In this document: piece by piece, positions 3,172 to 62,645 of the stretch | How positions within the stretch are numbered: the stretch's first letter is position 1 | Layout: each line of letters begins with the position of its first letter | Assembly (NCBI GenBank): GCA_040880505.1 | Contig: JBBDIH010000192.1 | Location: forward strand, 9,594-73,593 | DNA from: Minisyncoccota bacterium | GTDB taxonomy: Bacteria; Patescibacteriota; Minisyncoccia; UBA6257; GWB1-50-10 | Reading direction: 5' to 3' | DNA: 64,000 bases | The notes under the pieces: model-generated | What the model saw: only the letters and a program-made list of their open reading frames with translations | Database searches by the model: none | Told to the model about the DNA's origin: nothing | Translations under genes and position numbers: made by a program

Positions 3172-4782
3172 TTAATTTTCTATAAAAATTCTTGCTTCTC
3201 TAACATACCAAGATTCAATGTTTTTAAACCTATCCGAAGGTATAACTAAATTGTTTTCTGCTGTGTTAAAGAAGGAAGAATTAAATCCTTTTAATTTTTG
3301 ATTATAAATGTATGTGTAAGGCAAGGAAAAAAGAAAGACCGCTGGAGAATCTAAATTAATAATCTCTACTAATTCTGAAAATTGACTCTCTCTTTGTGAA
3401 AAATCTTCTGTTTGTCTTATATTTTCTATTAATGTGTCTGCGTCTTCATTTGAGTATAGAGATAAATTTAATCCTGGATAAAATCTTTGTGAAGAGTGCC
3501 AAAAAGGAAACAGGTCTAGATTATTTTCTAAAATATTACCGAAAATAACAGCTTCATAGTTTCTTTCTCTTATGACTGTGTTTGTAAAATCATCAGACGA
3601 AAGAACTATTACATCAACAGAGTCTATTCCAACATTTTCCCAGCTATCTTTTATAAATTTTGCTGTTTCTTTTATAAACTCAACATCTGGAATAATTATC
3701 TCTAGGGTTAACTCATTATTTTCTTGATCTTCTTTAAACTTCCTTATTATCTCTCTAGATTCTTCAATTGATAAAGTTGGTAAATTTTCATTAAAGCTAG
3801 GCGCCGTAATTATTTGAGCTTTTTCTTTTAATACATTTTTTATTAATTTTTCTTTATTTATTGTCGATTTTAGTGCTTCTCTGAAATCAACGTCATTTAA
3901 AGCAGATGTCGATCTAGGATTAAAAAATATTGAGTAATATCTAGGCATTTTCATAACTTCAATATTTGCAGAAGATATGGAAAAATCAACAATTGAAAGA
4001 GAACCAAATCCATCTATATCTCTTTTTCTAAATGCATCTATTAATGCTTCTTCATTTTCAAAAAACTTAAAGTAGAAGTCCTTTATATATGGTTTTTCTC
4101 CATAATAATTTTCATTTACACTAAATTTATACTCAGTTATAAAGCCGTCTCTTCTCCTTTTAAAAGAATCGAACTCGTACGGTCCTGCGCTTATAGGTTC
4201 TAAATTATAAGAAGATAATCTCAGGTTTGAATAAGGAATTGAAGAAAATATATGACTTGGAATTATAGGTAATTTATCTATATTGTCACCAAAAAATACA
4301 TAAGGGGCTGGCAAATTAAACTTAACCTGTAGCTCACTTATTCTTTCAACTACGATTCCTTGCCAACTTTTTGATAGAGGAGAATTAACCTCTGGATCTT
4401 GAATCATGTTTATTGTAAAAATTATGTCATCTGTGGTTAATCTTTCGCCATCACTCCAAGTTAATTCTTCTGGAATGGTTACTGTATAAGCTCTATTTTC
4501 TTCTATATTTATATTCTCTGCCATTTCTCCTAACTTAGGATAAACTAAAGAGCTTAGATCATAATCGATTGTATTATTTGATATTACTGGATTTATAGAA
4601 ACAGGCTGACCAACAACTCCTTCTATGTAAGACCCTCCTTCTACTGGAACAAATTCGCTGTTTTCATTTATAGCAAAAACCACTCTTGTAAAAAAGGTGA
4701 TGGTAAAAATTAAAAATAATACCGCAATTAAAATACGCTCCTTGCGAGTTAAAGAAAAAAATATGGAATTAAATATACCCAT
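3172..4782 (-). CDS. ABC-type solute-binding protein, family 5 (peptide/nickel type), N-terminally anchored
   Basis: N-terminal TM helix. LTWSDGERLTTDDIIFTINMIQDP resembles the family-5 SBP signature region. No permease or ATPase genes are adjacent. Confidence 0.6.
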   Translation of the reverse strand: MGIFNSIFFSLTRKERILIAVLFLIFTITFFTRVVFAINENSEFVPVEGGSYIEGVVGQPVSINPVISNNTIDYDLSSLVYPKLGEMAENINIEENRAYTVTIPEELTWSDGERLTTDDIIFTINMIQDPEVNSPLSKSWQGIVVERISELQVKFNLPAPYVFFGDNIDKLPIIPSHIFSSIPYSNLRLSSYNLEPISAGPYEFDSFKRRRDGFITEYKFSVNENYYGEKPYIKDFYFKFFENEEALIDAFRKRDIDGFGSLSIVDFSISSANIEVMKMPRYYSIFFNPRSTSALNDVDFREALKSTINKEKLIKNVLKEKAQIITAPSFNENLPTLSIEESREIIRKFKEDQENNELTLEIIIPDVEFIKETAKFIKDSWENVGIDSVDVIVLSSDDFTNTVIRERNYEAVIFGNILENNLDLFPFWHSSQRFYPGLNLSLYSNEDADTLIENIRQTEDFSQRESQFSELVEIINLDSPAVFLFSLPYTYIYNQKLKGFNSSFFNTAENNLVIPSDRFKNIESWYVREARIFIEN

Positions 4783-5035: not shown

Positions 5036-5398
5036 TTATTTAAAAGCGTGTTTTCCTGAAAAATCTACTATTACATTTACAATACCAAAAATTAAAGTTG
5101 CAATAATTAAAGGCATGTATCCCTGTATTGTAAGAGTAGTTACGAATATGTCAAGAATATATAAAGTTAATGCATTTATAACTATAACAAAAAGTCCAAG
5201 AGTTAAAAGTATAATAGGACCAAATAAAAGCTTAAATATCGGCCTAATAAATAGGTTTATTAATGTAAATATTCCAGCAGCTATCATTAAATCCAGAAAA
5301 GTTCCTATAAAATTAAATCCGGAAACAAGATAATCAGCAGCAAGTATTGCTACAGAATTTGAAAATACTAAAAATATTAATTTACCTATAAATTTCAT
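5036..5398 (-). CDS. DUF360 / holin superfamily IV-like 4-TM membrane protein
   Basis: 120 aa with four hydrophobic helices. The pattern AILAADYLVSGF...LFGPIILLTLGLF resembles the YvlD/DUF360 family. Confidence 0.5.
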   Translation of the reverse strand: MKFIGKLIFLVFSNSVAILAADYLVSGFNFIGTFLDLMIAAGIFTLINLFIRPIFKLLFGPIILLTLGLFVIVINALTLYILDIFVTTLTIQGYMPLIIATLIFGIVNVIVDFSGKHAFK

Positions 5399-6450
5399 TA
5401 TTTATTTTTTGATTCTTTTTCCTTTTCTTTCTCTTTGTCTTTTATGACTTTTAGGGTTTCTTTTTTTATTGTGTTTAAAAGCTTTTTATCTTCTTTTAAT
5501 TCTTTTCTAGCGTTATCAAAACCAACTGCTATGCTTTCATCATTATATCTATAACTTGCTCCAGCTCTTTTTACAACTCCATAATTAACAGCAGTATTCA
5601 AAATGTCTCCCTCATAAGAAATTCCTTCTCCATAATAAATATCAAATTCTGCAATTTTAAATGGTGCCGCAACTTTATTTTTTACAACTTTTACTTTTGT
5701 TCTGTTTCCTATAATCTCATCTTTCTGTTTTATTTGTGCTCTTCTTCTTATGTCTAATCTAACAGAAGAATAAAACTTTAAAGCTCTTCCTCCAGGAGTT
5801 GTCTCTGGATTTCCATACATTACTCCTATCTTCATTCTTATTTGATTTATAAATATAATTACTGTTCCAGACTTAGAAGCGATAGATGTTATTTTTCTTA
5901 AAGCTTGAGACATTAATCTTGCTTGAAGACCTATGTGTCTTGCTCCCATCTCCCCGTCTATTTCATCTCTTGGTGTAAGAGCCGCAACAGAATCAACTAC
6001 AATTATATTTATAACTCCTGACTTAACTAAACTTTCCATTATGTTTAGTGCCTCTTCACCTGTGTCGGGCTGAGATATAACTAAATCTTTTATATTCACT
6101 CCTATTTTTCTGGCATAATCTGGATCAAGAGCATGCTCTGCATCAATAAAAGCTGCTTTACCTTTTTGTTTTTGCATTTCGGCTATAGCATGAAGAGCTA
6201 GTGTTGTTTTACCACTAGATTCTGGGCCATATATTTCTATAACCCTACCTTTTGGTAAACCGCCGACACCCAAAGCTAAATCAAGAGAAAAAGATCCAGA
6301 CGGAACTGTTTCTACATTAACTTTCTTATTATCGCCTAGTCTCATTATTGCTCCTTCACCATACTTTTCCTGCATGGAAGAAATTAGATCATTCAAATCA
6401 TCTTTTTTGTTTTCTTTCTTTTGATTTTTCTTAGATTTCTTTTTTGCCAT
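5398..6450 (-). CDS. recA: recombinase RecA
   Basis: [20 protein letters not shown] Walker [11 protein letters not shown] and [30 protein letters not shown] motifs. Lys-rich N- and C-terminal tails. Confidence 0.95.
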
Positions 6451-6483: not shown

Positions 6484-6532
6484 TTATCCCCAGAAATTTA
6501 TGCCTCCCGAGGGCATAAATAACTGTGGATAA
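6484..6532. repeat. 49-bp imperfect palindrome containing two DnaA-box-like 9-mers, upstream of recA
   Basis: TTATCCCCA (6484-6492) and TGTGGATAA (6524-6532, a perfect consensus box) flank a 9-bp-stem hairpin (6496-6504 pairs with 6512-6520). The whole unit has 21-nt arms with 3 mismatches. Confidence 0.6.
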
Positions 6533-6551: not shown

Positions 6552-7343
6552 CTAGAATAAAGGGGCCCGGATGTTTCCTTCATTAATATCATCTTCTGGA
6601 GAAGGTAAAATTAAATCGTTTTGTTCTTCCTCATTAATAATATTTTCCTCTGCTGTTTCTTCTTCAGTTTCTTCTAATTCGAAAAATACTTGTTTTGTTA
6701 CTGTAGCTTCTCTGTTTAGTGGCCCTTCAATTATAAAATTTAAAGTATTAAACCCTGGTTCTAATTCTATTTCTGTTTTAAAACTTCCATCTTCATTTAA
6801 TAAGACTTGAGAATTATTTAATTTTAAAGAGAGGTCCCCTTCTAATTCACCTGTAATTGTAAAATTAGAAGTTGTGGTCATTGTTATGTTTTCTTCTAAA
6901 TTAGCTAAGCTAAGGTTGTTTGAAATATTACCAGAAAACGTAGATCTAAAAATAAAATAAAGAGGAACTAATAATAAAATTAAAAAAATTATTATTATCT
7001 TTTTATTTATAGAAGGAACATAAAATCTATTTTCTGGAAGCTTGTCTCTGCTACCTGATTTTTTTAGAGATTCACTGTTTTTAAAATAAATTTTCCATAG
7101 CTCTTCTCCATCAAGATTTAAATAATCAGAAATTTTAACAATATAACCATGAAGATATGGAGTAGCTGGAAGCTTATCAAAGTCCTCTTCTAATAAGAGT
7201 CTTATAAATCTCTCTGATATGCCAGTTTCTTGAGATATCTTCTCCAAAGAAATTCCGCTATTCCTCATGGCTCCCTCAAGCACTGATGATAAACTGTGAT
7301 TATTGTCTGTCATTGTCTTAATAATACTATTCTTCTGACTCAA
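6552..7343 (-). CDS. RodZ-like HTH domain membrane protein
   Basis: N-terminal HTH (SLEKISQETGISERFIRLLLEEDFDKLPATPYLHGYI), one TM helix and an acidic C-terminal domain, as in RodZ-type proteins. Confidence 0.55.
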   Translation of the reverse strand: MSQKNSIIKTMTDNNHSLSSVLEGAMRNSGISLEKISQETGISERFIRLLLEEDFDKLPATPYLHGYIVKISDYLNLDGEELWKIYFKNSESLKKSGSRDKLPENRFYVPSINKKIIIIFLILLLVPLYFIFRSTFSGNISNNLSLANLEENITMTTTSNFTITGELEGDLSLKLNNSQVLLNEDGSFKTEIELEPGFNTLNFIIEGPLNREATVTKQVFFELEETEEETAEENIINEEEQNDLILPSPEDDINEGNIRAPLF

Positions 7344-9456
7344 TCAAAAGTTCTCTTGGCTTTGATCCTTCTGGAGGTCCAACTATTCCTGCTTCTTCCA
7401 TCATATCAAGAAGACGAGCAGCTCTAGCATAACCAACTCTAAGTCGTCTTTGAATAAGAGATGCTGAGCCTTTTCCTGCTTCTTTTACAACTTCTATAGC
7501 ATCCTCATAAAGTTCGTCTCCATCTTCATTATTATTATATTTTTCAAAATCTATTTTAGGCTTTGAATCTTCTTTTTCTTCTATTTCTAAGTATTCTTCT
7601 TCTGGGGTTTCATTATTTTCTTTTATGTATTTAACAACAGACTTTATTTCTTTTTCTGTAATAAAAGCACCTTGAACTCTTTTTGGTTTTGAGGATTCAG
7701 ATGAAATAAATAATAAATCTCCATTTCCTAATAATTTTTCAGCACCAGACATATCAAGAATAGTTCTTGAATCAATCTGACTAGCAACCTGCAAAGATAT
7801 TCTTGTTGTAATGTTTGCTTTAATAAGACCAGTAATAACCTCAACTGAAGGACGTTGAGTAGAAACTACTAAATGAATTCCTGTTGCTCTAGACATTTGA
7901 GCTAACCTAATAATGGCACCCTCAACTTCTCTACTATATGTGGCCATAAGATCAGCTAACTCATCTATAACTATTAAAATATAAGGTAAAGGATTATCAG
8001 AGTTCTTTTTGTTGTAACCTTTTATATCTCTTACTCCAGCCGACAAAAGCCTTTCATATCTTTCGTCCATCTCATTAACTGCCCAGTTCAGGGCTCCTAT
8101 AGCTTTTTTATTCTCTGTTATTACGGGAGATATTAAATGAGGAATATCATTATAAACAGAAAGCTCTACTCTTTTTGGATCTATCATTACCATCCTTAAG
8201 TGTTCCGGAGAATTTTTAAAAAGTAATGATTGAATAATTGCGTGAATTGTTATTGATTTACCACTTCCTGTTGCTCCAGCAACAAGCATGTGAGGCATTT
8301 TTGCGATATTAGCAATCACGGGATCACCGCTAACATCTCTCCCTAAAATAAAGGATAGGTGATCTGATTTTTGAAACTCTGGATAAACAAGCAAACTTCC
8401 CAATCTAACAATTGCAGCTTGTTTGTTTGGTACCTCTATGCCAACTAATGATTTACCTGGGATAGGGGCTTCTATTCTTAATGGATGTGCAGCTAAAGCA
8501 AGTGAAAGATCAGAATGAAGAGCTGTTATCTTTGAAAGTTTTACACCTTCTGCAGGCTTTAGAGTGTATCTTGTTACTGTTGGTCCAACTTGAACTTCTC
8601 CCATTTCTACCGGAATACCAAAACTATCTAGAGTTCTTTTAATAATGTTAGCGTTGGCTCTTAAGTCTCCTATTGTTGGCTTTTCTATTTTAGAAGCTAA
8701 AAGTGAAAGTGGTGGTAATTTATAATTTCCACTATGAGAAAGTGTTGAAGCTTCAAAATTTTCTTTTTTATCTTTATTTTTATTTTTTTCTGTAAAATCT
8801 TCTTTTTTCTTTATGGTTTCTTCTTCCTCTTTTTTATCTTCTTCATCATCTTGTTTTTCATCTGAACCTTCAGGCATTTTTATTTCTACATTTTCATCTT
8901 CGTCGTCTTCTCCTTTTGTCGGAACAGTAAACACCTCTTTAATATTAGGGAAACTGAAATCGAAAGGTTTATTAAGAACTATAAGAAAAGAAACAACAAG
9001 AGCGGCCAACATAATAACTGTAGAAGCTGAAGTTCCTAGGGGACTTTCTAATCCTCCAATAATTGAACCAATAGTTCCTCCGCTTTCGCTTGAGTATATA
9101 TCAATTAATCCCAAACCTGAGATTATAAAAATAAGAGCACTAGTTATTGTTAGGGATAGATTTCTTTCTTTCTCTGGAGAAACAAAAGAAAAGGCTAAAA
9201 TAAATGAAGCTACAGGAAGCAACCAATAACCAACTCCAAAAAGTTTTTCAAAAAAATTATAAAAACTTTCTCCAACAGGACCGGCTTGACCGGCAGCAGC
9301 CAGAACAAAAATAATTGAGGCCGCTAAGAAGAAAATTACCCAAACGGTTTTTCTTATTTCTGGATGGATAGATTGAGACCATCCATCTTTTATTTTTCTT
9401 ATTCTGGTTGGAGAACTGTTTTTTTTGTTTCTCTTTTTAGATTTTTTTCTAGGCAT
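7327..9456 (-). CDS. ftsK: DNA translocase FtsK/SpoIIIE
   Basis: N-terminal TM helices, an acidic linker, the motor domain with Walker A LVAGATGSGKS and Walker B ILIVIDELADL, and a C-terminal gamma-like winged helix (ASLIQRRLRVGYARAARLLD). Confidence 0.9.
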   Translation of the reverse strand: MPRKKSKKRNKKNSSPTRIRKIKDGWSQSIHPEIRKTVWVIFFLAASIIFVLAAAGQAGPVGESFYNFFEKLFGVGYWLLPVASFILAFSFVSPEKERNLSLTITSALIFIISGLGLIDIYSSESGGTIGSIIGGLESPLGTSASTVIMLAALVVSFLIVLNKPFDFSFPNIKEVFTVPTKGEDDEDENVEIKMPEGSDEKQDDEEDKKEEEETIKKKEDFTEKNKNKDKKENFEASTLSHSGNYKLPPLSLLASKIEKPTIGDLRANANIIKRTLDSFGIPVEMGEVQVGPTVTRYTLKPAEGVKLSKITALHSDLSLALAAHPLRIEAPIPGKSLVGIEVPNKQAAIVRLGSLLVYPEFQKSDHLSFILGRDVSGDPVIANIAKMPHMLVAGATGSGKSITIHAIIQSLLFKNSPEHLRMVMIDPKRVELSVYNDIPHLISPVITENKKAIGALNWAVNEMDERYERLLSAGVRDIKGYNKKNSDNPLPYILIVIDELADLMATYSREVEGAIIRLAQMSRATGIHLVVSTQRPSVEVITGLIKANITTRISLQVASQIDSRTILDMSGAEKLLGNGDLLFISSESSKPKRVQGAFITEKEIKSVVKYIKENNETPEEEYLEIEEKEDSKPKIDFEKYNNNEDGDELYEDAIEVVKEAGKGSASLIQRRLRVGYARAARLLDMMEEAGIVGPPEGSKPRELLIESEE

Positions 9457-9522: not shown

Positions 9523-9551
9523 TTGACTAACAATAAAAGTAATTGTATAAA
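9523..9551 (+). promoter_or_regulatory. sigma70-type promoter
   Basis: TTGACT (9523-9528), a 17-nt spacer, then TATAAA (9546-9551). The ORF-track TTG start is actually this -35 box. Confidence 0.55.
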
Positions 9552-9585
9552 TAAATTAGCAATATTAACTAAGAATGGAGGTTTT

Positions 9586-10032
9586 ATGAACTCTTCTTTA
9601 TACGCCTCAGGTTCTCCAATGAATCCTGTAGATCCAAAATTACCAAAATTAATAATATTAATTTTGGCTTCATTTTTTTTATTTATTTTTTTTCTTAAAG
9701 TTGATTATTCTTTTTTAGACAACTCTTCTTTATCCCAAGAAAAAGAAGACACTGTTCAACTTGATAAAATAAAAAAATTTGATCTTGTGGTACTTCAAAA
9801 TAATGAAGTAAGGATGGCAGAAAACAAAGAAGGAATTTATCCTGGGATAAAATTAATTTCTTCTAATGTTCAAAATTCTTCCATATTTTTAAATATGGAT
9901 ACAGAATTAGGAACATTTGAAAATTATAATCTTAAAATTAAAAAGGTTATTCCTTTTACTGCTGATACAGTTAGTGATGAATGGAAAAAAGGAATAGATT
10001 TATTTCTTAAAGAAAAGCCCTGGCTAGATTAA
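9586..10032 (+). CDS. hypothetical membrane-anchored protein
   Basis: ATG at 9586 follows a GGAGG Shine-Dalgarno 5 nt upstream. One TM helix (LIILILASFFLFIFFL). No family recognised. Confidence 0.45.
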   Translation: MNSSLYASGSPMNPVDPKLPKLIILILASFFLFIFFLKVDYSFLDNSSLSQEKEDTVQLDKIKKFDLVVLQNNEVRMAENKEGIYPGIKLISSNVQNSSIFLNMDTELGTFENYNLKIKKVIPFTADTVSDEWKKGIDLFLKEKPWLD

Positions 10033-10047: not shown

Positions 10048-10086
10048 CGCTTATCTACTTAATTTACGTAGATAAGCGTTTTTTAT
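10048..10086 (+). terminator. rho-independent terminator
   Basis: An 11-bp stem, CGCTTATCTAC pairing with GTAGATAAGCG, followed by TTTTTTATTTT. Confidence 0.75.
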
Positions 10087-10120: not shown

Positions 10121-10373
10121 AAAATAATGTTTGTCAACAAACATTATTTTCATTTTACACTATGTTTTGCGAAAAGTGTTTGTTGACAAACACTTTATTC
10201 ACAGTTTTTTACTAATTTTCGTAAAAAAATGTTTGTTGACAAACATTTTTTGTAGTTTTTTGGCTATTTTTATGTTTTTATGTGTTTATTTTAGTTTTAA
10301 TTGTTTGTTGACAAACATTATTCTCTATTTTTAGCTGATTTTTTAAAAAAAGTGTTTGTCAACAAACACTTTT
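10121..10373. repeat. array of five 16-bp inverted-repeat sites TGTTTGT-(CA|TG)-ACAAACA
   Basis: Cores at 10128-10143 (CA), 10177-10192 (TG), 10230-10245 (TG), 10302-10317 (TG) and 10353-10368 (CA). Flanks extend the symmetry to 24-30 bp in four of the five copies. Centre-to-centre spacings are 49, 53, 72 and 51 bp. The spacers are degenerately similar. Confidence 0.9.
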
Positions 10374-10393
10374 AACCACATAAGGATAAGATT

Positions 10394-10433
10394 AAATAAA
10401 AATAACCGTAGACTTATATTGTCTACGGTTATT
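10394..10433 (-). terminator. rho-independent terminator
   Basis: A 13-bp stem, AATAACCGTAGAC pairing with GTCTACGGTTATT (10401-10433), followed on the minus strand by TTTATTT. Confidence 0.7.
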
Positions 10434-10448: not shown

Positions 10449-10763
10449 TTATCCTCTTATAAAAAGCATTAGAATAATAATTAAACTCTCTAACAAGCTT
10501 ATAGCCATAGACCAAAACATTGCCGGGCTTTTTGTTCTTATGCCTTCTAATGTAATAGCCCCTTGTATAAAAGCAAAAATAACATACATGGAAAGAGATA
10601 CACCTTCAACACTTGAAGCAGTAAAGACCATAACAAGTTGAGGTAATAAAGCTAATGGATTTATTAAAATAACAAGAGAAGAGATGAATTTATAATAAGA
10701 AGAACTAGTTAAAGTTCTTGTTTTCTTTTCTAGAAGATCAATCAAATTATTGGATTTATTCAT
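10449..10763 (-). CDS. SemiSWEET-like PQ-loop membrane protein
   Basis: 104 aa with three TM helices. LALLPQLVMVFTASSVEGVSL resembles the PQ-loop motif of bacterial SemiSWEET transporters. Confidence 0.5.
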   Translation of the reverse strand: MNKSNNLIDLLEKKTRTLTSSSYYKFISSLVILINPLALLPQLVMVFTASSVEGVSLSMYVIFAFIQGAITLEGIRTKSPAMFWSMAISLLESLIIILMLFIRG

Positions 10764-11597: not shown

Positions 11598-12998
11598 ATG
11601 GAAATGGATTTAAAATCACTGTCTTCTGCAATAAAACAAATTGCCGATAACAGAGGCATATCAACCGAAAAAGTTAAAGAAGCCATTGAAGGTGCTTTAG
11701 CTAGTGCTTATAAAAGAGAATACAGAGATAGATCGGAAATAATAAAAGCTCAACTAGACATAGAAAGTGGAGAAGCAAAATTTTGGCAAATTAAAACTGT
11801 GGTTGACCCAGAAGAAGTTAGGGTGGTTGAAGGTGGAGACGAAGAGGAAACAGAAAATAATTTAGAAGAAGATGAACAATTACCTAGGTATAATTCTGAT
11901 AGACACATTTTTATAAAAGAAGCTAAAAAAATAAAAGAGGATGCGGAAGTTGGCGAAGAATTAATTTTCCCTCTAGAAACTCATGAAGACTTTGGAAGAA
12001 TTGCAGCGCAAACTGCAAAACAAGTAATTCTTCAGGGAGTAAGAGAAGCAGAAAGAGAATCTATAATGGATGAATTTAAAGACAAGGAAGGAGAGATTGT
12101 TAGTGGTGTGATTCAAAGATATGAAAGAGGTCATGTTTATATTGATCTTGATAGATCTATGGGGATAATGTTTCAAAATGAAAGTATTCCCGAAGAACAT
12201 TATCGTTCTGGTCAAAGAATGAGGTTTTTAGTTTTAGCTGTACAACAAGAAGATAGGAGAAAACCAGGAATTGTACTTTCTCGTTCAAATCCAGACTTTG
12301 TTGCAAAACTTTTTGAATTAGAGGTTCCAGAAATAGCAGAGGGGGTTGTAGAGATAAAGAAAATAGCCAGAGAAGCAGGAAGTAGAACAAAGATAGCAGT
12401 TATTTCTCATGAAGAAGGGATTGATCCAGTTGGTTCAGTTGTTGGTCAAAGAGGATCAAGAATAATGGCAGTTATTAATGAGTTAGGCAATGAAAAAATA
12501 GATGTTATTGAATGGAGCGAAGAACCAGAAGAATATATTGAAAACTCTCTTTCACCTGCAAAAATTAAGTTAGTTGAAACAAACTCTAGAAGAGAAGCAA
12601 TCGTGATAGTTCAAGATGATCACCTAAGCTTAGCTATTGGTAAAGGAGGACAAAATGTTAGATTAGCCGCTAAATTAACTGGATGGAAAATAGATGTTAG
12701 AGCTCAATCTAATCCTGATGAAAGCTTAGACGAAGGAACAGGTAATGAAGAGGAAGTTGAAGATGAGGGCTCAATAAAGGATGGACAAAATGTTGAAGTC
12801 TCAGCAGAAAACAAGGACGAAGAAAGTAAAGAGAATAATGAAGAATCTACTGAGGGTGAAGTTTCAACTGATGATAATTCAGTAGAAGAAAGCATTGAAG
12901 ATGAGGACTCAGAAACTACCGACGAAGACGATAAAGTTAAGATAAACAAAAAGGACGAAGGGGAAAATAATAAAGAAGAAGAAAAAGATGTTTCATAA
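11598..12998 (+). CDS. nusA: transcription termination/antitermination factor NusA with acidic C-terminal tail
   Basis: NusA N-terminal domain, S1 domain (GEIVSGVIQRYERGHVYIDL) and KH domains (VGQRGSRIMAVINELGNEKIDVIEW, GKGGQNVRLAAKLTGWKIDV). About 100 aa of E/D-rich tail. Confidence 0.9.
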   Translation: MEMDLKSLSSAIKQIADNRGISTEKVKEAIEGALASAYKREYRDRSEIIKAQLDIESGEAKFWQIKTVVDPEEVRVVEGGDEEETENNLEEDEQLPRYNSDRHIFIKEAKKIKEDAEVGEELIFPLETHEDFGRIAAQTAKQVILQGVREAERESIMDEFKDKEGEIVSGVIQRYERGHVYIDLDRSMGIMFQNESIPEEHYRSGQRMRFLVLAVQQEDRRKPGIVLSRSNPDFVAKLFELEVPEIAEGVVEIKKIAREAGSRTKIAVISHEEGIDPVGSVVGQRGSRIMAVINELGNEKIDVIEWSEEPEEYIENSLSPAKIKLVETNSRREAIVIVQDDHLSLAIGKGGQNVRLAAKLTGWKIDVRAQSNPDESLDEGTGNEEEVEDEGSIKDGQNVEVSAENKDEESKENNEESTEGEVSTDDNSVEESIEDEDSETTDEDDKVKINKKDEGENNKEEEKDVS

Positions 12999-51287: not shown

Positions 51288-52652
51288 ATGTATAACATGG
51301 ATTTCGAAAAGACATGGCAAACTGTTTTAAGTGAAATAGAACTTCAAATTTCTAGGCCTAATTTTTTAACTTGGTTAAAACAAAGTCAATTAATAGAAAA
51401 GAAGACAAAAGATGGACTTGCGATTGTTAGCCTCCCAAATAACTTCGCAAAAGAGTGGGTTAAAAATAGATACCACAAAATAATATTAGGGTCGCTAAGA
51501 AGCATAGATGGTGATATTAAAAATATTGATTATGTTGTTGTAGCTTCTGACAACAAACAAAAAAAAGCGAGTAAAAAAAGAAAAGGTGATGGCTCTGAGG
51601 CTCAGCCATCTTTAGTTGAAACTAAAGTAGACCCCAAAACAAACCTAAACCCCAGATACAAGATGGAGACCTATGTTGTAGGATCATCTAACGAGCTTGC
51701 TCATGCTGCTGCTAGCGCCGTAATAAATGACACTGGTAAAAAATATAATCCTCTTTTTATATATGGAAAAGTTGGTTTAGGTAAGACTCATTTAATACAG
51801 GCAACTGGTAATTCTATTGTTGAAAATAAAAATTTAAACGTCTTATATGTAACTTCGGAAAAATTTATTAATGATGTTGTTTGGGCAATAAGAAATAAAA
51901 GAATGGAAGACACAAAAAAGAAATATAGAAATATAGATGTTTTAATAATTGATGATATTCAATTTATAGGGGGCAAGGCCGCCACAGAAGAAGAATTCTT
52001 TCATACTTTTAATGCATTATATGAACAAAATAAACAGATAATACTTTCTTCTGATAGACCTCCAGCAGCCATACCAACGCTTGAGGAAAGGCTAAGGTCT
52101 AGATTTGAGGGTGGAATGGTTGCCGATATAAGTTACCCAGATTATGAAACTCGTTTAGCTGTTTTAAAAAACAAGGTTAGTGAAAAACAAATTGATATTG
52201 ATGATAAAACACTAGAAACAATAGCGGCTAAAATACAGAGAAACATAAGAGAGTTGGAGGGAGTATTAAATAAGGTTGTTTTTTATCAAGAATTTAAAAA
52301 CGAAAAGATAGATTCTAAAAAGCTTGATAAAATAATAGGGGAAACCTCGAAGACATCCTCTAAGAATATAACCTCGAGCGAGATTATTAGTGTTGTTGCT
52401 GATTTTTTTGAAACAACTCCTGAAGAAATATCAAGCAGAACCAGAAAAAGAAAGGTTGTTGAGCCAAGACAAATATGTATGTATTTACTTAGGGAATTAT
52501 TAGATCTTTCTTATCCAAATATAGGAGAAAAAATAGGAGACAGGGATCACACAACAGCAATTCATTCTTGTGAAAAAGTATCAAAAGATATTAACAATGA
52601 TTCTGCATTAAACCAGAAGATCATGTTAATAAAAGAAAGAATTTATAAGTAG
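51288..52652 (+). CDS. dnaA: chromosomal replication initiator DnaA
   Basis: Walker A FIYGKVGLGKTHL, LIIDDIQFIGGK, and the domain IV segment PRQICMYLLRELLDLSYPNIGEKIGDRDHTTAIHSCEKV. Confidence 0.95.
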   Translation: MYNMDFEKTWQTVLSEIELQISRPNFLTWLKQSQLIEKKTKDGLAIVSLPNNFAKEWVKNRYHKIILGSLRSIDGDIKNIDYVVVASDNKQKKASKKRKGDGSEAQPSLVETKVDPKTNLNPRYKMETYVVGSSNELAHAAASAVINDTGKKYNPLFIYGKVGLGKTHLIQATGNSIVENKNLNVLYVTSEKFINDVVWAIRNKRMEDTKKKYRNIDVLIIDDIQFIGGKAATEEEFFHTFNALYEQNKQIILSSDRPPAAIPTLEERLRSRFEGGMVADISYPDYETRLAVLKNKVSEKQIDIDDKTLETIAAKIQRNIRELEGVLNKVVFYQEFKNEKIDSKKLDKIIGETSKTSSKNITSSEIISVVADFFETTPEEISSRTRKRKVVEPRQICMYLLRELLDLSYPNIGEKIGDRDHTTAIHSCEKVSKDINNDSALNQKIMLIKERIYK

Positions 52653-52794
52653 GGATTAAAAGTTATTAACAATCACCGCTATTTATTAACAAGAAAACAA
52701 AAGGTTATACATTATTAATTAACAACAAAAAGGTTTCTAATAAGACAAAAACTAAGGTTATCAACAGATTTTAACTAACACTACTACAACTACT
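52653..52794. other. dnaA-dnaN intergenic region with five same-orientation DnaA-box variants (candidate oriC)
   Basis: TTATTAACA at 52663 and 52683, TTATACATT at 52705, TAATTAACA at 52716 and TTATCAACA at 52758. All are on the + strand in AT-rich sequence. Confidence 0.5.
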
Positions 52795-53913
52795 ATGAAA
52801 TTAATATTATTAAAAACAAACTTAATAGAAGGATTAAATTCTGTGGAAAAGGCTGTTTCAAGTAATCAAAATTTACCAATATTAAACAATATAAAAATCA
52901 ACGTTATTAAAAACGAGGGTTTTATAGATTTAATTTCTACTGACTTAGAAATGGCAATTACAAAAAAGATTTCAGGTAAAATAATATCTGATGGGGTAGC
53001 TATTGTTCCTTTTAATCTTTTAAATAAAATAATTAAAAATTTAAATTCTGAAAAAATTAATATAGAAAAAAAAGAAAATAAATTATTAATAAACTCAGAC
53101 AACTATGAAGCTATTATAAATTGTGAAAATGAAGATGATTATCCAATAATACCCGACATACAAGACAAGAAAGAGGTTTTAAAGATAAAAAAAGACCTAT
53201 TTAAGGATGTTTTAAGTAAAACATTAGTAGCAACCAGTCATTCTGATATAAGGCCCGAAATAAATGGTATTTTTATTTATTATGATGGTAAAAACATGAT
53301 GTTTGCAGGAACGGATAGTTTTAGATTAATAGAAAAAACAATAGATTATAAAAACATAGAATCTTCTTTTAAAGAGGTTAATTTTACAATACCAACCAAA
53401 ACAGCAGAAACACTAATAAAAACATTAGAAGAAGATGATTTTATTAATATTTATGTAGATTCTAATCAAATTTTATTTGAGACAAAAAATTTAAAAATAA
53501 TATCTAGAATAGTAGATGGAAAATTTCCTGACTATAAGAATGTTATTCCAAAAGAAAGCAAAACAGATCTAACCCTAGATAAAAATGAAATATTAAATGC
53601 TATCAAAATAACCAGCTCTTTCTCGGGTAAAGCAAATGATGTTGTTTTAAATATAATAGACAAAGGAAGAGTTTTGGAGGTTTTAGCTTCTGATAACTCA
53701 TTAGGAGAAAATAAATACAGAGTGCCCATAAACAAAATAGAGGGAGAAAAAGAAGATCAAACAATTATATTTAATTGGAGGTATATAGAAGAAGGTATAA
53801 AAATTTTTGATGGTGATAAAATAAGATTTAATATAGATGAATCAGGCAAAACAGTTATAAAGGCAGACAGCAATAAAAATTTGCTTTATGTAGTTATGCC
53901 TATAAGAGGTTAA
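52795..53913 (+). CDS. dnaN: DNA polymerase III beta sliding clamp
   Basis: 372 aa immediately after dnaA. N-terminal pattern MKLILLKTNLIEGLNSVEKAVSSNQNLPILNNIKI and C-terminal LLYVVMPIR. Confidence 0.9.
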   Translation: MKLILLKTNLIEGLNSVEKAVSSNQNLPILNNIKINVIKNEGFIDLISTDLEMAITKKISGKIISDGVAIVPFNLLNKIIKNLNSEKINIEKKENKLLINSDNYEAIINCENEDDYPIIPDIQDKKEVLKIKKDLFKDVLSKTLVATSHSDIRPEINGIFIYYDGKNMMFAGTDSFRLIEKTIDYKNIESSFKEVNFTIPTKTAETLIKTLEEDDFINIYVDSNQILFETKNLKIISRIVDGKFPDYKNVIPKESKTDLTLDKNEILNAIKITSSFSGKANDVVLNIIDKGRVLEVLASDNSLGENKYRVPINKIEGEKEDQTIIFNWRYIEEGIKIFDGDKIRFNIDESGKTVIKADSNKNLLYVVMPIRG

Positions 53914-56417
53914 TTAAAAACTATAATAGACTCCCTTCTTTTGTTGTTGTTTTCATCTATAATTTCTATTTCTATTACATTTTGTGAAGATAAGTCGTTA
54001 CTTACATAGTAAAAATAATCGTGATTATTTTTAGATAATTTTTTAGAGCTTATAAGCAAGCCATTAAAATATAAATTTATTTTCTCTAAAATTTCTTCAG
54101 ATTCTATTTCAGCGGTAACAAATAAAGGGCCCTCGATAAAATCACCATTTTGAGGTTTTAAGTTATTTATTTTAATTATTGATTCCTCATTACTTTCTAT
54201 TGAATTTAATATAATGTTTTCCGGAACTGGTTTATTGTATTCAGAGAAATTTTCTATATTTTTTTCTGCCCAAACCCTAATGGCCTCTTCCCAATTAAAG
54301 AATTGAGAATCATTTGAACTTTCTCTTGGTGGATTTCCTAAAACATTTTCTTTATTTATCCAATAAAGAGAAGAGTGTAATTGTGGTAGTATTTCTTCAT
54401 CTATCTCAGCACTAAAAACAGCACTCCCATTTAACATGGGTTTGTTTGGGGGGGTTGTGGTTTCTGGTTTATTAAAAACATTAGAATTAAATTCTTTTGT
54501 CTCAAAAACCTCGTTTAAAAAATTGCTCCACATAGGTATCGCTGCTAATAAACTAGATCCTCGTGAGTGCATTTGCTGGTTATTATTATTACCAGCCCAA
54601 ACACCAACAACAAAAGAAGGGGTATAGCCAACTGCCCAAGCGTCTTTGTAATTATTAGTTGTACCAGTTTTAAGAGCAACCTCTTTTTCAGGGAAAATAG
54701 TTAAAGGAAGACTAGAGACAAGCAACCCAGACCTTAATTCTAAATCAGACAAGATTTTATTTATTTGTCTTACCGGCTGAGCCTCAAAAACTCTTTTTGA
54801 TGAGTCTGAATAATTTTCTGTGGTTTGATTTTTATCATTTTTTATTTCTAAAATTATTGATTGGTCATGGTAAACTCCGTCATCAGCTAGAGTTGAATAC
54901 GCATTAACAAGCTCTATTAATTTTACTTCTCCGCCACCCAAGACTAAAGATAAACCATATTTCCATCTTTCGTTTAGAGTATTAATGCCAAAATCTTTTA
55001 AGGTTTTTAAAACATTATCAAAACCAGCTAAATAAAGCATTTTAACAGAAGGAATATTTATTGATTGAGAAAGAGCCGACTCTAAAGACACTGGACCCCT
55101 AAAAGTATTGTCAAAATTTTCCGGATTAAAACAATCACTATTTATTAAAGATTGAGGAGTAACAACAGCGGGACAATCTGGGTCTCCCACCGTAAACTCA
55201 GTTAATACATCCATTAATACGCTTTTTGGGTGAAAGCCATTATTAAAAGCAGTTAAGTATGCGAATGGTTTTAATGTTGATCCAGGCTGTCTTAAGCCCT
55301 GTACTGGCACATTGAATTTTCCTTGTATTTCTTCGTTATAGTAGTCTCTAGATCCAACCATGGCTAAAATTTGACCAGTATTTGGGTCTTGAGCAACCAG
55401 CGCAGCGTTATTTCCTCCGTATAGTTCCTCGTTTCTTTTAGCTCCCTGTTCTACAACACGCTCTGCTATTTTTTGTATTTCCCAATCAAGTGTGGTTATC
55501 ACTTTTAGGCCGCCATTTAATGCTACTTGTTCACCATACTTACTTATTAAGTAACTCTTTACATATAAAGAGAAGTGAGGAGCCTTTATTTCTCCTATGT
55601 TTTGTGGGGAAAAATTTTTTTCTACATCTTCATTTTTTGCCTCTTCAGACTGTTCTTCTGATATAAAATTAAATTTAACCATTCTATCTAAAACATAATC
55701 CCTTCTATTTATTAATCCTTCTATATTATTTCCCCAAGGAGAATAATAACTTGGTGCCTGAGGAAGGCTGGCTAGAGTTGCCATTTCTGATAATGAAAGG
55801 TCTTGAATTGATTTATTAAAAAAAGTTTGGCTAGCCGCCTCTATTCCATAAGCATTTGATCCATAAGGAATTTGATTTAAATAAGCCTCAAATATTTCAT
55901 CTTTTGAGTATTTTGATTCTAGGTCCATTGCTAATATTAACTCTTTTACTTTTCTTGTTATTGTTCTTTCAGGGGTTAAAAAAGCATTTTTAACTAATTG
56001 TTGAGTAATTGTTGATCCGCCCTGAACTATTTCACCTTCTTTTAAGTTTGTTATGGCGGCCCTTAAAATTCCTCTCCAATCAAAAGCGGGCTGGTTATAA
56101 AAATCTATATTTTCAGCAGCCAATGTAGCGTCTTTTATTTCTTGTGGAATAGAATTAAAATCTACAATTGTTCTTTTTTCTTCTCCAAATATTTCATAAA
56201 GAAGGACCTCTGCGGTTCTGTCATATATTTTAGTTGATTGGCTAACTTTTCTATCATTAAAATCTTCAAGAGGTGGCAATTGATTTATGACTACTGTTGC
56301 ATAAACTGCCACACCAGCCAAAACAAAAAGAAACAAAAACAACGCACCTATAATAATCAAAATTAAGTTTTTTTTTCTTTTTTCTTTTTGTTTTTTTGTT
56401 TTTCTTCTTTTTGTCAT
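53910..56417 (-). CDS. class A penicillin-binding protein (glycosyltransferase + transpeptidase) with C-terminal extension
   Basis: GT51 motifs (AAENIDFYNQPAFDWRGILRA, GGSTITQQLVKN, RKVKE) and transpeptidase motifs STLKP and KTGTT. About 200 aa of extra C-terminus. Confidence 0.9.
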   Translation of the reverse strand: MTKRRKTKKQKEKRKKNLILIIIGALFLFLFVLAGVAVYATVVINQLPPLEDFNDRKVSQSTKIYDRTAEVLLYEIFGEEKRTIVDFNSIPQEIKDATLAAENIDFYNQPAFDWRGILRAAITNLKEGEIVQGGSTITQQLVKNAFLTPERTITRKVKELILAMDLESKYSKDEIFEAYLNQIPYGSNAYGIEAASQTFFNKSIQDLSLSEMATLASLPQAPSYYSPWGNNIEGLINRRDYVLDRMVKFNFISEEQSEEAKNEDVEKNFSPQNIGEIKAPHFSLYVKSYLISKYGEQVALNGGLKVITTLDWEIQKIAERVVEQGAKRNEELYGGNNAALVAQDPNTGQILAMVGSRDYYNEEIQGKFNVPVQGLRQPGSTLKPFAYLTAFNNGFHPKSVLMDVLTEFTVGDPDCPAVVTPQSLINSDCFNPENFDNTFRGPVSLESALSQSINIPSVKMLYLAGFDNVLKTLKDFGINTLNERWKYGLSLVLGGGEVKLIELVNAYSTLADDGVYHDQSIILEIKNDKNQTTENYSDSSKRVFEAQPVRQINKILSDLELRSGLLVSSLPLTIFPEKEVALKTGTTNNYKDAWAVGYTPSFVVGVWAGNNNNQQMHSRGSSLLAAIPMWSNFLNEVFETKEFNSNVFNKPETTTPPNKPMLNGSAVFSAEIDEEILPQLHSSLYWINKENVLGNPPRESSNDSQFFNWEEAIRVWAEKNIENFSEYNKPVPENIILNSIESNEESIIKINNLKPQNGDFIEGPLFVTAEIESEEILEKINLYFNGLLISSKKLSKNNHDYFYYVSNDLSSQNVIEIEIIDENNNKRRESIIVFN

Positions 56418-56512
56418 AATTGTCTAAATTTTATGAATCATAATTATGAAGGCCTCCACTTTAAAATAATAGTGTTTTTAAGGGAGGGGGTAAAGTTTAT
56501 TAAGTAAACCCA

Positions 56513-56550
56513 TTAATTAAAACCAGCCTATACGGGCTGGTTTTAATTAA
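56513..56550. terminator. bidirectional-type terminator hairpin
   Basis: 16-bp stem TTAATTAAAACCAGCC pairing with GGCTGGTTTTAATTAA. The GC core is followed by a U run on either strand. It lies downstream of the acidic ORF. Confidence 0.6.
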
Positions 56551-56568
56551 TTTATCTTGTGAATAAAA

Positions 56569-56751
56569 TTAAAAATCAGAATCTTCAGAATCCTCATCGT
56601 CATCATCATCATCATCGTCATCATCATCCCAGTCTTCATCATCGTCATCATCATCGTCATCATCATCCCAATCCTCATCCTCATCTAACTCGTCGTCTTC
56701 AGCTATTATTTCGAGGGTTTTTAACTCCTCTATTTCGTAAGTAAAAGTCAT
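56569..56751 (-). CDS. hyper-acidic 60-aa protein (poly-Asp with two Trp)
   Basis: ATG-initiated ORF with its own promoter (56806-56834) and terminator (56513-56550). 37 of the last 44 residues are D or E, with the repeat EDW-D10/D11. Confidence 0.4.
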   Translation of the reverse strand: MTFTYEIEELKTLEIIAEDDELDEDEDWDDDDDDDDDDEDWDDDDDDDDDDDEDSEDSDF

Positions 56752-56805
56752 TTTAGTTACTTTATTATTTTTTTATTGAAGCGACCTTTTTCAAATATCG
56801 CGGCT

Positions 56806-56834
56806 AGTATAATCTAGCTAAAAAGAAAGGTCAA
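56806..56834 (-). promoter_or_regulatory. sigma70-type promoter (minus strand)
   Basis: On the minus strand, TTGACC (56834-56829), a 17-nt spacer, then TATACT (56811-56806). The -35 abuts the motif palindrome. Confidence 0.55.
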
Positions 56835-56865
56835 CCCCGTTAGAAAATTTATTTTCTAACGGGGT
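56834..56865. repeat. dif-like palindrome ACCCCGTTAGA-N10-TCTAACGGGGT
   Basis: Arms at 56834-56844 and 56855-56865 flank AAATTTATTT. The arms are identical to the 19690-19720 site. Confidence 0.9.
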
Positions 56866-56881
56866 AAACTCCTAAAAATAT

Positions 56882-57343
56882 TTAGTAATCGCCGGCGGCT
56901 ATTGCAATTGCAATAGCGTCAGTTTCGTCGTCTATTAATTTATTTGTATTTATATTTAAAAAATAATTAACCATTTTTGCTACAGCTTCCTTTGATGATC
57001 GCCCATTACCAGCCACAGACAACTTTATTTGAGTCGGAGATAGCTCTATTAAATCAATATTATTTTTATGTAGAGTTGATATTATAACTCCTCTTGCTTC
57101 AGCAACCTTAATGGCTGTTTTTTTATTTTTTGAAAAAAATATTTTTTCAACACCAGCCTTGTCTGGTTTTATTCTTTTTATTATTTTTTCTAGTTCTTCT
57201 TCTATCTTTAATAATCTAGATTTTTGCTCTTTATTTTCTATTTTAAGTAAGCCACTTTCTTTGTATTTATATGTGCCTCCATTTTTTTCTATAACCCCAT
57301 AACCAACCCTAACTGTCCCTGGATCTATTCCTAAAAAAATCAT
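56882..57343 (-). CDS. ruvC: Holliday junction resolvase RuvC
   Basis: MIFLGIDPGTVRVGYGVIE and the C-terminal DETDAIAIAI motifs. Confidence 0.9.
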   Translation of the reverse strand: MIFLGIDPGTVRVGYGVIEKNGGTYKYKESGLLKIENKEQKSRLLKIEEELEKIIKRIKPDKAGVEKIFFSKNKKTAIKVAEARGVIISTLHKNNIDLIELSPTQIKLSVAGNGRSSKEAVAKMVNYFLNINTNKLIDDETDAIAIAIAAGDY

Positions 57344-57345
57344 TA

Positions 57346-58449
57346 TTATTTTAGTGGTAGAGTAAAACTAAAAGTTGTGCCTCTTCCCGGTGTTGAATTA
57401 ACCCATATTTTACCTCCATGTTTTTCGATTATGTTTTTTGAAATATATAAACCTAGACCGCTACCATTAGGTTCAACTTGAGCAGCTTTATCACCTCTTT
57501 TAAATTTTTGAAATATTTTAGTAGTTTCCTCTTGTGGTATACCTATTCCTGTGTCAGTTATTGATATAAGGGCATTACCATTGTTTTCTTCTAGGCTTAT
57601 GGTTACAGACCCATTTTCATTGTTATATCTTATTGCGTTGTCTACTAAAACAGATAGGGCCGTAGATATTCTTTCTGGATCCACAAATACTTCATATTTA
57701 GATTTTGCTTTAAAACTTACGTCTATATTATATTTTTTTGCTATAACTTTTGCCTCTTCTGCTATTTTTTCTATTATATTATTTATTATTATTTTCTCTG
57801 GCTTGTGGCCATATCTACCCTCTTCAATCTGAATTACGTTTAATAAATCATTTATTATTTTTAAACCTCTTTTAGCAACTTCAAGTCCTTGAGACGCTAA
57901 ACTCTTTGTTTCTTCTTCTTTTGTAGAGTTTTTAATACCCTCAAAGGTCCAACTAATAGCGCTTAAAGGGGTTCTTAATTGATGAGCTGATGTGGTTATA
58001 AACTCTGTTTTAGATTCTAATAAACCCTCTTCTCTTGTCTTGTTTTGAATTATTTTTATAAATTTTTTTGTATTTCCATAATCATCAATTACCTTACTAA
58101 GAACAGTTACTAAATTCATTTCAGGGGAGTCTGTTTTTATGTTTATAATTTGTGGCCAGTCGTTTGTTGAAATTTGATCAACATAAGGAGCTAAAGAAGG
58201 GAAAATAGTTTGTCCTAACGCTCTAAATTTTTCATCTTGAACAAGTTCTGGTGTTATTTTTTTTCCAACAACGTCTTTTTCTTTTAAATTAAATATTTTT
58301 TGAGCTGAATTATTTATCTTTTCTATTATAAAATCAGGAGAGTAAATAACGATTCCTTCTTCTAAATAATCCACAAAGAAATCAGATAAATCTTTATTGA
58401 TTTTTTTCGTTTCTTGTATATTCGAGTTTTTTTTAAAAAAGTTAAACAT
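57346..58449 (-). CDS. cytoplasmic PAS-domain sensor histidine kinase (orphan)
   Basis: H-box SAHQLRTPLSAI, N box LVDNAIRY, G boxes DTGIGIP and GSGLGLYISK. No TM helix and no adjacent response regulator. Confidence 0.8.
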   Translation of the reverse strand: MFNFFKKNSNIQETKKINKDLSDFFVDYLEEGIVIYSPDFIIEKINNSAQKIFNLKEKDVVGKKITPELVQDEKFRALGQTIFPSLAPYVDQISTNDWPQIINIKTDSPEMNLVTVLSKVIDDYGNTKKFIKIIQNKTREEGLLESKTEFITTSAHQLRTPLSAISWTFEGIKNSTKEEETKSLASQGLEVAKRGLKIINDLLNVIQIEEGRYGHKPEKIIINNIIEKIAEEAKVIAKKYNIDVSFKAKSKYEVFVDPERISTALSVLVDNAIRYNNENGSVTISLEENNGNALISITDTGIGIPQEETTKIFQKFKRGDKAAQVEPNGSGLGLYISKNIIEKHGGKIWVNSTPGRGTTFSFTLPLK

Positions 58450-60832: not shown

Positions 60833-60874
60833 TAAGTTAATTATATCAAAAAAAGAACTATCTTTTTTATTGAG

Positions 60875-61321
60875 TTAGATGGAGTATTTTATTATTCGTT
60901 TGTTTGGGTTTTTTCCGTGCTCAAAATTAATTTTTATACAATTTTTAGGAAGGATTTTTTTAACTTTTTCTGGCCACTCTATAATTACTAAATTATCAGA
61001 GTTATTAATAATTTTATTTATATTTAGGTTTTCTAGGTCTTTTCCTGATTCTAAGCGATAAGCATCTACATGGTATAAATTCTTAAAACCAAACTCTTTT
61101 TTAGGAATGTTATACTTTTTTATTAGTAAAAAAGTAGGACTAGTTATGTTTTCTTTTATCCCTAGATTATTTCCTAAATATTTTGTAAAAGTGGTTTTCC
61201 CAGATCCTAAAACACCATAAAGGCAAATTGTAGTAGCTTTATTTTCCTCTTTTCTTAACTTTTCTAAAATTAATTTACTAAAACCTGTTAATTCATTTTC
61301 TTTTAATTTTATATTACTCAT
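60875..61321 (-). CDS. tsaE: tRNA t6A biosynthesis ATPase TsaE
   Basis: LYGVLGSGKTTFTK Walker A and HVDAYRL motifs of YjeE/TsaE. Confidence 0.85.
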   Translation of the reverse strand: MSNIKLKENELTGFSKLILEKLRKEENKATTICLYGVLGSGKTTFTKYLGNNLGIKENITSPTFLLIKKYNIPKKEFGFKNLYHVDAYRLESGKDLENLNINKIINNSDNLVIIEWPEKVKKILPKNCIKINFEHGKNPNKRIIKYSI

Positions 61322-62296: not shown

Positions 62297-62449
62297 GATG
62301 GTGTTTTATTTATATTAATTAATATTTCTTGACCTAATCACGATAACACTATTGTGATCCATATTATTATATTAGTATTTATAAACTTATTTTCCTAATC
62401 ATTTACATTTTAGGAGAGGCCATTTTCCTAAAACACCTTAAATTAAAGG

Positions 62450-62478
62450 TTGACAATAAAATATATTTATGCTATATT
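62450..62478 (+). promoter_or_regulatory. sigma70-type promoter driving the candidate ncRNA
   Basis: TTGACA (62450-62455), a 17-nt spacer, then TATATT (62473-62478). Confidence 0.55.
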
Positions 62479-62486
62479 TTTAACAT

Positions 62487-62645
62487 AAAATCCCTCAGTG
62501 ACCTGTGGGTGAATGGAACATCTCTCAGACTTAGGATCTTTCTGGCTCCGGCTGGGATTATCCTCGGAGGAGTTCCTGATTAACTAGTTTTCTAGTTTAA
62601 TTCTTTGCTTATTTGCCCACAGGTCTTTGAGGGATTTTTGTTTTT
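62487..62645 (+). ncRNA. candidate structured small RNA (~160 nt), family unknown
   Basis: A 23-bp closing helix (62487-62509 pairs with 62616-62638, one mismatch and one G-U) followed by UUUUUGUUUUU. Internal helices GGAAC/GUUCC and AGGAU/AUCCU, a C-UCCG-G tetraloop hairpin and an AACUAG-uuuu-CUAGUU hairpin. No ORF. Confidence 0.45.

Follow-up and report, generated by a model that had tools for sequence, protein, structure and literature searches.

Palindrome array between two convergent genes

The 64-kb window analysed here (the whole stretch of 64,000 nucleotides from positions 9,594 to 73,593 of contig JBBDIH010000192.1, Minisyncoccota bacterium; coordinates below are those of the window) is low-GC chromosomal DNA (about 31% GC) and carries, in a single intergenic spacer, an array of five exact copies of the 16-bp palindrome TGTTTGTNNACAAACA (TGTTTGT-YR-ACAAACA), spanning 10128–10368 (Table 1). 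The gene order around the array was recA, a rodZ-like HTH_25 gene and ftsK (all three on the minus strand), an orphan membrane-protein open reading frame (ORF), the array itself, a SemiSWEET-like gene (minus strand), a NUDIX gene, nusA and an inorganic pyrophosphatase gene, such that other genes are inserted between the array and nusA. The NusA encoded here was 100% identical to one annotated from a Candidatus Paceibacterota metagenome-assembled genome. Successive sites were spaced at 49, 53, 72 and 51 bp, their central dinucleotides were CA, TG, TG, TG and CA, and perfect symmetry extended into the flanks by 7, 4, 6, 0 and 5 bp per side in sites 1–5, respectively. Re-reading the sequence showed that the original prediction, a description made from the sequence alone, had been exact on the centres, the spacings and the extension of four sites by their flanks. 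No further copy of TGTTTGTNNACAAACA was found in the 64 kb, even at 2 mismatches, and dinucleotide-preserving shuffles gave a mean of 0.67 matches, with 0 of 100 reaching five. L017, a second assembly from this organism, differed at 8 of 13,100 overlapping bases, none of them within the array; because the array was identical in both assemblies, it is not an assembly artefact.

The array had also been predicted to lie between the terminators of two convergent genes, and both hairpins indeed folded well (Table 1). Sites 2–4 each hold a TTGACA, as had been pointed out, but a sigma-70 consensus scan found no −10 element at a suitable distance and no convincing promoter leading into or out of the array, bearing in mind that Patescibacteria promoters are uncharacterised. 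Since terminators lie on both sides and no promoter-like match leads into or out of the array, the array cannot act on a neighbouring promoter here, and the earlier statement that it is not an operator for one holds in the window genome. The upstream 169-aa ORF was considered as the source of a protein binding the sites and rejected, as it encodes an orphan membrane protein with no homologues outside its own cluster.

The cores of the five copies were 92% identical, with 14 of 16 positions the same in all five, while the upstream and downstream spacers were 42–46% identical (ungapped) against 33% expected from local composition. The claim that the spacers are degenerately related is therefore borne out in that they exceed expectation, if weakly so. 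Cores this uniform among spacers of near-random similarity argue for purifying selection on the window sites, which would thus still be selected without a local promoter, the putative protein still binding them.

Table 1. Coordinates of the array and of other features in the window.
Feature	Position	Strand	Remarks
Site 1, TGTTTGTCAACAAACA	10128–10143	none	With flanks, 30-bp perfect palindrome (10121–10150)
Site 2, TGTTTGTTGACAAACA	10177–10192	none	24-bp palindrome including flanks; DnaA-box-like TTATTCACA(G) 2 nt further on, 10195–10203
Site 3, TGTTTGTTGACAAACA	10230–10245	none	28-bp palindrome including flanks
Site 4, TGTTTGTTGACAAACA	10302–10317	none	No flank symmetry (16-bp palindrome)
Site 5, TGTTTGTCAACAAACA	10353–10368	none	26-bp palindrome including flanks; then TTAACCACA at 10372–10380
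Second conserved motif, TGTCGTAAAA	10115–10124	+	Array edge away from nusA
Intrinsic terminator of upstream orphan membrane-protein gene (9523–10032)	10048–10086	+	Fold 10048–10078 plus T-run, −14.9 kcal/mol, z −5.6
Intrinsic terminator of SemiSWEET-like gene (10449–10763, minus)	10401–10433	−	Fold −19 kcal/mol, z −7.0
nusA	11598–12998	+	Synteny anchor; palindromes upstream of (yraN-)nusA in 11 other Patescibacteria genomes
ftsK	7327–9456	−	With rodZ-like gene (6552–7343) and recA (5398–6450), conserved left flank in Paceibacteria
Probable oriC (context, outside the element)	52624–52794	+	TTATYAACA box cluster and CTA-trio-like run; dnaA 3' end and dnaA-dnaN spacer, 42 kb from array

The element in other Patescibacteria

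Scanning one genome per species across 185,579 species for two sites 30–60 bp apart returned only five loci, four labelled Patescibacteria (three of these Saccharibacteria) and one, L002 (RFLC01000268.1), labelled Candidatus Pacearchaeota archaeon. The latter carried a bacterial yraN and an array layout almost identical to that of the Saccharibacteria contig L005, and is probably mis-binned. Each of the five loci had 4–7 sites, mostly TGTTTGTCGACAAACA. In all loci long enough to judge (L001, L003, L004 and L005) the array lay beside the UPF0102 gene yraN, with nusA and a pyrophosphatase gene next in order; L002 was too short, with yraN alone visible. Further loci were taken from the neighbourhoods of NusA homologues at 64–74% identity, which share recA-rodZ-ftsK ... 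yraN-nusA synteny, and TGTTT-N6-AAACA occurred in the orthologous spacer of L010 (2 sites), L011 (1), L014 (1), L028 (1), L029 (2) and L031 (3). The suggestion that conservation at this synteny position be checked was thus answered positively, with 1–7 copies (usually TGTTTGTCGACAAACA) at the orthologous spot in 11 other Patescibacteria genomes. No canonical site was found in the region examined in L026, which had half-sites and an everted version only, or in L027, which is rearranged and in which yraN no longer adjoins nusA.

In nine genomes scanned (about 150 kb) the sites were confined to the syntenic spacer, and in about 250 kb of Patescibacteria sequence examined no other gene had the motif upstream of it. 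Scatter through many intergenic regions, which had been named as the sign of a generic REP element, was not what we observed: there was one locus per 64–72 kb, and the relatives had sites only at the syntenic position. Judged by motif and synteny, the window array is a locally amplified ortholog of a Patescibacteria-wide element, and arrays have expanded independently in several lineages. The contig of the closest relative (L030, 1–88; NusA 79% identical) starts 87 bp upstream of nusA, and its assembly may be broken where the repeat array would lie.

A metagenome scan for paired sites returned two tandem satellites only, with 25–32-bp periods, which were not used; in these (L006 5202–5281, L007 516–1081) the 16-mer or a TTAA-centred variant sits within 30–32-bp and 25-bp perfect tandem satellites with no Patescibacteria gene context, and they are unrelated look-alikes. 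A viral scan for the 16-mer gave 8 isolated single matches and no clusters, a chance-level result that does not point to a centromere of phage or plasmid type.

Conservation pattern and site geometry

In the 43 sites collected across 12 genomes, TGTTT and AAACA, the outer pentamers, were invariant (43/43), positions 6–11 varied, and the flanks showed a half-site consensus of AAAR on each side. GTCGAC was the commonest inner hexamer, and AGCGCT, ATCGAT, CGCGCG, GTGCAC and mixed half-site combinations also occurred. An unbiased search allowing 4 mismatches anywhere gave the same picture, in that imperfect array sites differed only at positions 6–11 and matches with outer mismatches lay in unrelated coding DNA. 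Site spacing across genomes varied between 28 and 135 bp and was not helically phased. The sites have the dyad symmetry of an operator, with contact bases one helical turn apart (pentamer centres separated by 11 bp around a variable hexamer), and invariant pentamers at this distance around a tolerant centre point to a homodimeric DNA-binding protein contacting successive major grooves. With this pattern the element is almost certainly a docking site for a two-fold symmetric DNA-binding protein, and it fits the earlier suggestion of a nucleation or decoy site for a dimeric helix-turn-helix (HTH) protein.

CpG was depleted across the window (observed/expected 0.46), GTCGAC was absent from the 64 kb and TCGA occurred at 0.72 of expectation. 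The TG or CA centres found here instead of the CG of other lineages are probably explained by this general depletion, which suffices without restriction avoidance of GTCGAC or TCGA as their cause.

The yraN and comM setting

In L001, L003, L004 and L026 the order was comM, a DksA/TraR-type zinc-finger gene, the palindromes (in L026, the half-sites and everted version), yraN and nusA, the two sides being divergently transcribed, and in several genomes the nearest palindrome of this divergent spacer lay 15–150 bp from the yraN start. YraN is an endonuclease that resolves the transformation D-loop and that interacts and co-evolves with the ComM helicase; yraN and comM are co-localised in 34% of the genomes having both (bioRxiv 10.1101/2024.02.06.579203). 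Given this linkage and the divergent gene order, the array occupies, in the relatives, the shared control region of a functionally coupled pair. Neither yraN nor comM was found in the 72 kb made up of the window and the 8.7 kb that L017 adds to its left. The close relative L010 had only a truncated yraN and kept two sites beside the remnant; in L031 yraN was intact.

The most economical account, to which we give a probability of roughly 0.45, is that the family constitutes an operator for a putative regulator and arose in the divergent control region of yraN and dksA-like-comM, which is what the spacer is in most lineages. The window array would then comprise five high-affinity sites for one sequence-specific homodimeric protein of HTH type, each monomer reading AAAR-TGTTT with its reading heads 11 bp apart, about one helical turn, and in the relatives this dedicated regulator would co-control yraN and dksA-like-comM through the family sites. 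In the window lineage, yraN would have been lost, comM would no longer lie nearby and other genes would have been inserted, leaving the sites between two terminators. Because the five copies keep perfect contact bases with no neighbouring promoter, binding would matter independently of yraN transcription, and the array most likely would now be a promoter-independent binding platform, whose role may be titration of the regulator, blocking of transcription or replication read-through, or chromosome anchoring.

Operators of the CRP/FNR family resemble these sites in their 5-6-5 architecture, TGT-N10-ACA, A-rich and T-rich flanks and tolerance of the inner six bases (AAATGTGATCTAGATCACATTT cf. AAATGTTTGTCGACAAACATTT). 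In some Gammaproteobacteria, competence genes such as comM are under CRP/FNR-family control, and CRP-S sites lie upstream of Haemophilus comM. The relatives' sites upstream of comM and yraN are similarly placed, a likeness that comes from established knowledge and is a lead rather than a test. The window family differs in its pentamer (TGTTT, not TGTGA or TGCGA), in having up to seven tandem sites and in the lack of a regulon beyond one locus; the DNA examined yielded no CRP/FNR-family gene, and the window array has no promoter. CIRCE/HrcA and NrdR boxes are likewise palindromes conserved over very deep divergence and tied to one gene set, with a regulator possibly encoded elsewhere, but those vanish with their target genes, whereas the window array outlives yraN and is amplified.

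Several observations weigh against a dedicated operator. No candidate regulator gene was conserved beside the array, where the neighbours are the YraN nuclease, NusA, the DksA/TraR-type zinc-finger protein and ComM, and because the motif lay upstream of no other gene in the Patescibacteria sequence surveyed, no regulon can be demonstrated. A simple operator would need fewer than five to seven strong, irregularly spaced sites. The array also survives, in its most expanded form, in a genome without the presumed target yraN, and since it outlives yraN both here and in L010, binding appears valuable apart from yraN transcription. Finally, the finding of no promoter rests on a sigma-70 consensus, Patescibacteria promoters being uncharacterised.

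Alternative explanations

The main rival to the operator is a chromosomal centromere or loading site of diverged parS-like form (TGTTT-NN-CG-NN-AAACA), on which a ParB-family or analogous clamp or bridging protein would nucleate near the origin, the yraN neighbourhood being inherited synteny only; we regard it as unlikely. The element shares with parS its palindromic form, its length of 16 bp, the outer TGTTT/AAACA and, in most lineages, the CG at its centre. Again like parS, it lies close to the origin (41–42 kb from dnaA/dnaN/yidC/jag), does not depend on promoters and occurs at very few loci per genome, with one locus per genome region examined. Identity to parS TGTTTCACGTGAAACA was 11/16 in the window and 12/16 for the CG-core sites of most lineages, canonical parS itself fits the degenerate consensus TGTTTNNCGNNAAACA, and the variant TGTTTAGCGCTAAACA resembles what we take to be the KorB operator, TTTAGCSGCTAAA. 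Variable copy number and irregular, unphased spacing (28–135 bp) would suit independent loading sites, and selection on the array where no promoter is available also speaks for this reading. However, a match to TGTTNCACGTGAAACA with its CAC/GTG core conserved was not found; the parS-defining CAC/GTG is replaced by a variable GTC/GAC, positions 6–7 and 10–11 differing and varying among the 43 sites, and the window contained no canonical parS at ≤2 mismatches. The 6/8 half-site match has a chance of roughly 0.4–1% per comparison and is weak evidence given the many known palindromes. Chromosomal parS sites are normally dispersed, not in tandem at 37–72 bp (28–135 bp across the family), and L026 and L027 were without a canonical site in the region examined. 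The search for parA/parB genes that the original prediction had proposed found neither ParA nor ParB, whether by tblastn of the window and L001–L016 (about 150 kb) or among the Pfam assignments of all loci, including the 72 kb of origin region and the surroundings of jag, yidC and dnaA. Its ParB/parS interpretation thus retained the resemblance of 11–12/16 but not the core, which is replaced and freely varying, and no partner protein turned up in the 72 kb. Literature searches on ParB, parS or oriC in Patescibacteria found nothing relevant. It is doubtful that the TGTTT-N6-AAACA cluster is the Patescibacteria chromosomal centromere or organising centre, of diverged parS type, about 40 kb from oriC and loading a diverged ParB or other protein; if it were, its survival and expansion after yraN loss would follow from its being kept superphylum-wide for that role. 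Plasmid centromere arrays (F sopC, P1 parS, RK2 KorB operators) also place several inverted-repeat sites in a short non-coding stretch, and a dual role as operator and centromere is known for proteins of this sort. The window array differs from them in being chromosomal, at a fixed syntenic position and without adjacent partition genes, and the layout once likened to sopC, with its exact 43-bp units, does not match the irregular period seen here.

It is very improbable, in our estimate, that the array is a DnaA-related element, either a secondary DnaA-box cluster (of datA or B. subtilis type) or part of an origin, despite several resemblances. The inner 9-mers TTGTCAACA/TTGTTGACA share 8/9 bases with the TTATCAACA/TTGTTAACA boxes that cluster around dnaA in this genome, in L001, L002, L005 and at window site 2 canonical-type TTWTYCACAG boxes stand a constant 2 nt from palindromes, and genes diverge from about 10–19 kb and converge on dnaA. 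The invariant outer pentamers, however, lie outside the putative 9-mer and the box-critical inner bases vary (TTAGCGCTA, for example, is no box), and the palindromes themselves hold no conserved TTWTNCACA-type 9-mer. Gene-strand-corrected GC/AT skew showed no break at 10.2 kb (side coefficient 0.002) and a weak break of the expected sign at 46–56 kb near dnaA; skews at four-fold sites were uninformative. With a box cluster and trio-like run of its own in the dnaA-dnaN spacer, the window offers a better candidate, and we rejected the array as the replication origin. A structured RNA or transcription-level element is scarcely more credible. Transcribed AU-rich hairpins with A and U tracts could act as weak, possibly NusA-dependent bidirectional terminators, or as a leader or small RNA upstream of yraN-nusA, and the last palindrome lies 15–30 bp from the yraN start in L002, L004 and L005, where the array may fall in the 5' leader. 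The 301-nt region folded with z −7.2 and single units at −10 to −11 kcal/mol, some sites are extended palindromes with differing flank sequences, and dyad-symmetric covariation exceeded that of shuffles (50 doubly changed cells vs 26 ± 4). Nevertheless, the stem sequence itself, beyond its pairing, was invariant across deeply diverged lineages, uncompensated inner variants (AGCGAC, GTCGCT, GCTGAC) were common (14 unpaired vs 15 doubly changed cells at two inner pairs), and flank symmetry was missing in about 40% of sites. The window array lies within no gene's leader, and with no promoter-like site, no Rfam match above noise (best 27.9 bits vs a gathering score of 100) and sequence kept more than pairing, the multi-hairpin RNA listed among the predicted functions finds no backing here. 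Equally hard to credit is a functionless operator remnant, which slippage at the palindromes would have amplified and short-tract gene conversion would keep uniform, with no selection for binding. The presumed target yraN is absent in the window and decayed in L010, and TG or CA has replaced the central CpG in all five sites, matching the CpG depletion; yet the positions shared by all five copies stand among near-random spacers, conversion limited to exact protein-contact bases would be contrived, and arrays expanded independently in several lineages.

Other repeat and site classes were also rejected. REP/BIME elements and CRISPR or TIGR arrays share with the window array their repeated palindromic units in intergenic DNA; the array differs in its single locus in 64 kb and syntenic position in relatives, its irregular spacing (49–72 bp), its weakly related spacers and the lack of RAYT, cas or tas genes. 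The unit structure of TIGR arrays, as described in PMC12045711, also differs from that of the window array. FtsK KOPS-like half-sites were discounted, as the 7-mers TGTTTGT and ACAAACA were rare and unskewed outside the array. No LexA/SOS box was found upstream of recA in the window, L011 or L014, and a dif/Xer site would have a different architecture (2-bp centre) and does not agree with the origin-proximal location.

Features accompanying the array and the replication region

The motif TGTCGYAAAA, represented in the window by TGTCGTAAAA, was found at the same array edge in L010 (9142, 9164), L002 (1636, 1652), L004 (6415, 6456), L005 (1014, 1030) and L031 (about 1780–1900), single or in direct or inverted pairs and always on the array side that faces away from yraN, and may represent a promoter element or the site of another protein. 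On the dksA-like/comM side, everted half-sites GAYAAACA-N4-5-TGTTTRTC mark the array edge (L001 5423–5442 and 5870–5889, bracketing the whole array; L003 2727–2746; L004 6262–6281; L026 4963–4982, the sole version there). In L026, a LAGLIDADG homing-endonuclease ORF (5078–5494) occupies the dksA-like/yraN spacer where other genomes carry palindromes. Two or three 23–26-bp direct repeats, CTGATARTGCGATRAAACCTACAYTT, stand beside the palindromes in L011 (9309–9402), L014 (9279–9425), L028 (about 5040–5130) and L029 (about 4130–4240), the repeat-plus-palindrome unit itself being duplicated in L029; they are absent from the window. The core AAACCTAC of these Paceibacteria repeats resembles what we take to be the Thermotoga 12-mer DnaA box. 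In L005 (1745–1830) and L010 (9905–9990), nusA has a good sigma-70-type promoter of its own, followed by a GC-rich hairpin and T-run before the start codon, possibly an attenuator like that of NusA autoregulation in other bacteria.

The genes jag, yidC, dnaA and dnaN lie at 49.6–53.9 kb, adjoining a type IV secretion cluster, an arrangement reported as typical of Paceibacteria (PMC12102498). Four TTATYAACA 9-mers occur within 143 bp in the probable oriC (with another at 51232), followed by the CTA triplet run CTAACACTACTACAACTACTA, and the whole resembles an oriC of Firmicute type in which the DnaA box is a variant one and DnaA-trios are present. Genes at 19789–53913 (plus strand) and 53910–63798 (minus strand) are transcribed towards dnaA-dnaN, and if the origin lies there, about 70% of coding DNA is head-on to replication. 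In the rodZ-recA spacer just upstream of recA (6484–6532), an inverted DnaA-box-like pair, TTATCCACAG and CTGGGGATAA, flanks a GC-rich hairpin.

Significance

In kind, the element belongs to a familiar class, that of conserved clusters of palindromic protein-binding sites; no description of the motif or of its distribution turned up in the literature searched. Patescibacteria make up a large share of bacterial diversity and are mostly uncultured, host-dependent cells that rely on DNA uptake, and almost nothing is known of their gene regulation and chromosome organisation. A 16-bp motif found superphylum-wide at one locus, beside the transformation and recombination genes of YraN and ComM, offers a bait for its binding protein. 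A regulator as binder would be the first control point to be defined for the transformation genes of Patescibacteria, and a partition or loading protein would mark out the Patescibacteria centromere; either outcome is testable in the few cultivable, genetically tractable Saccharibacteria.

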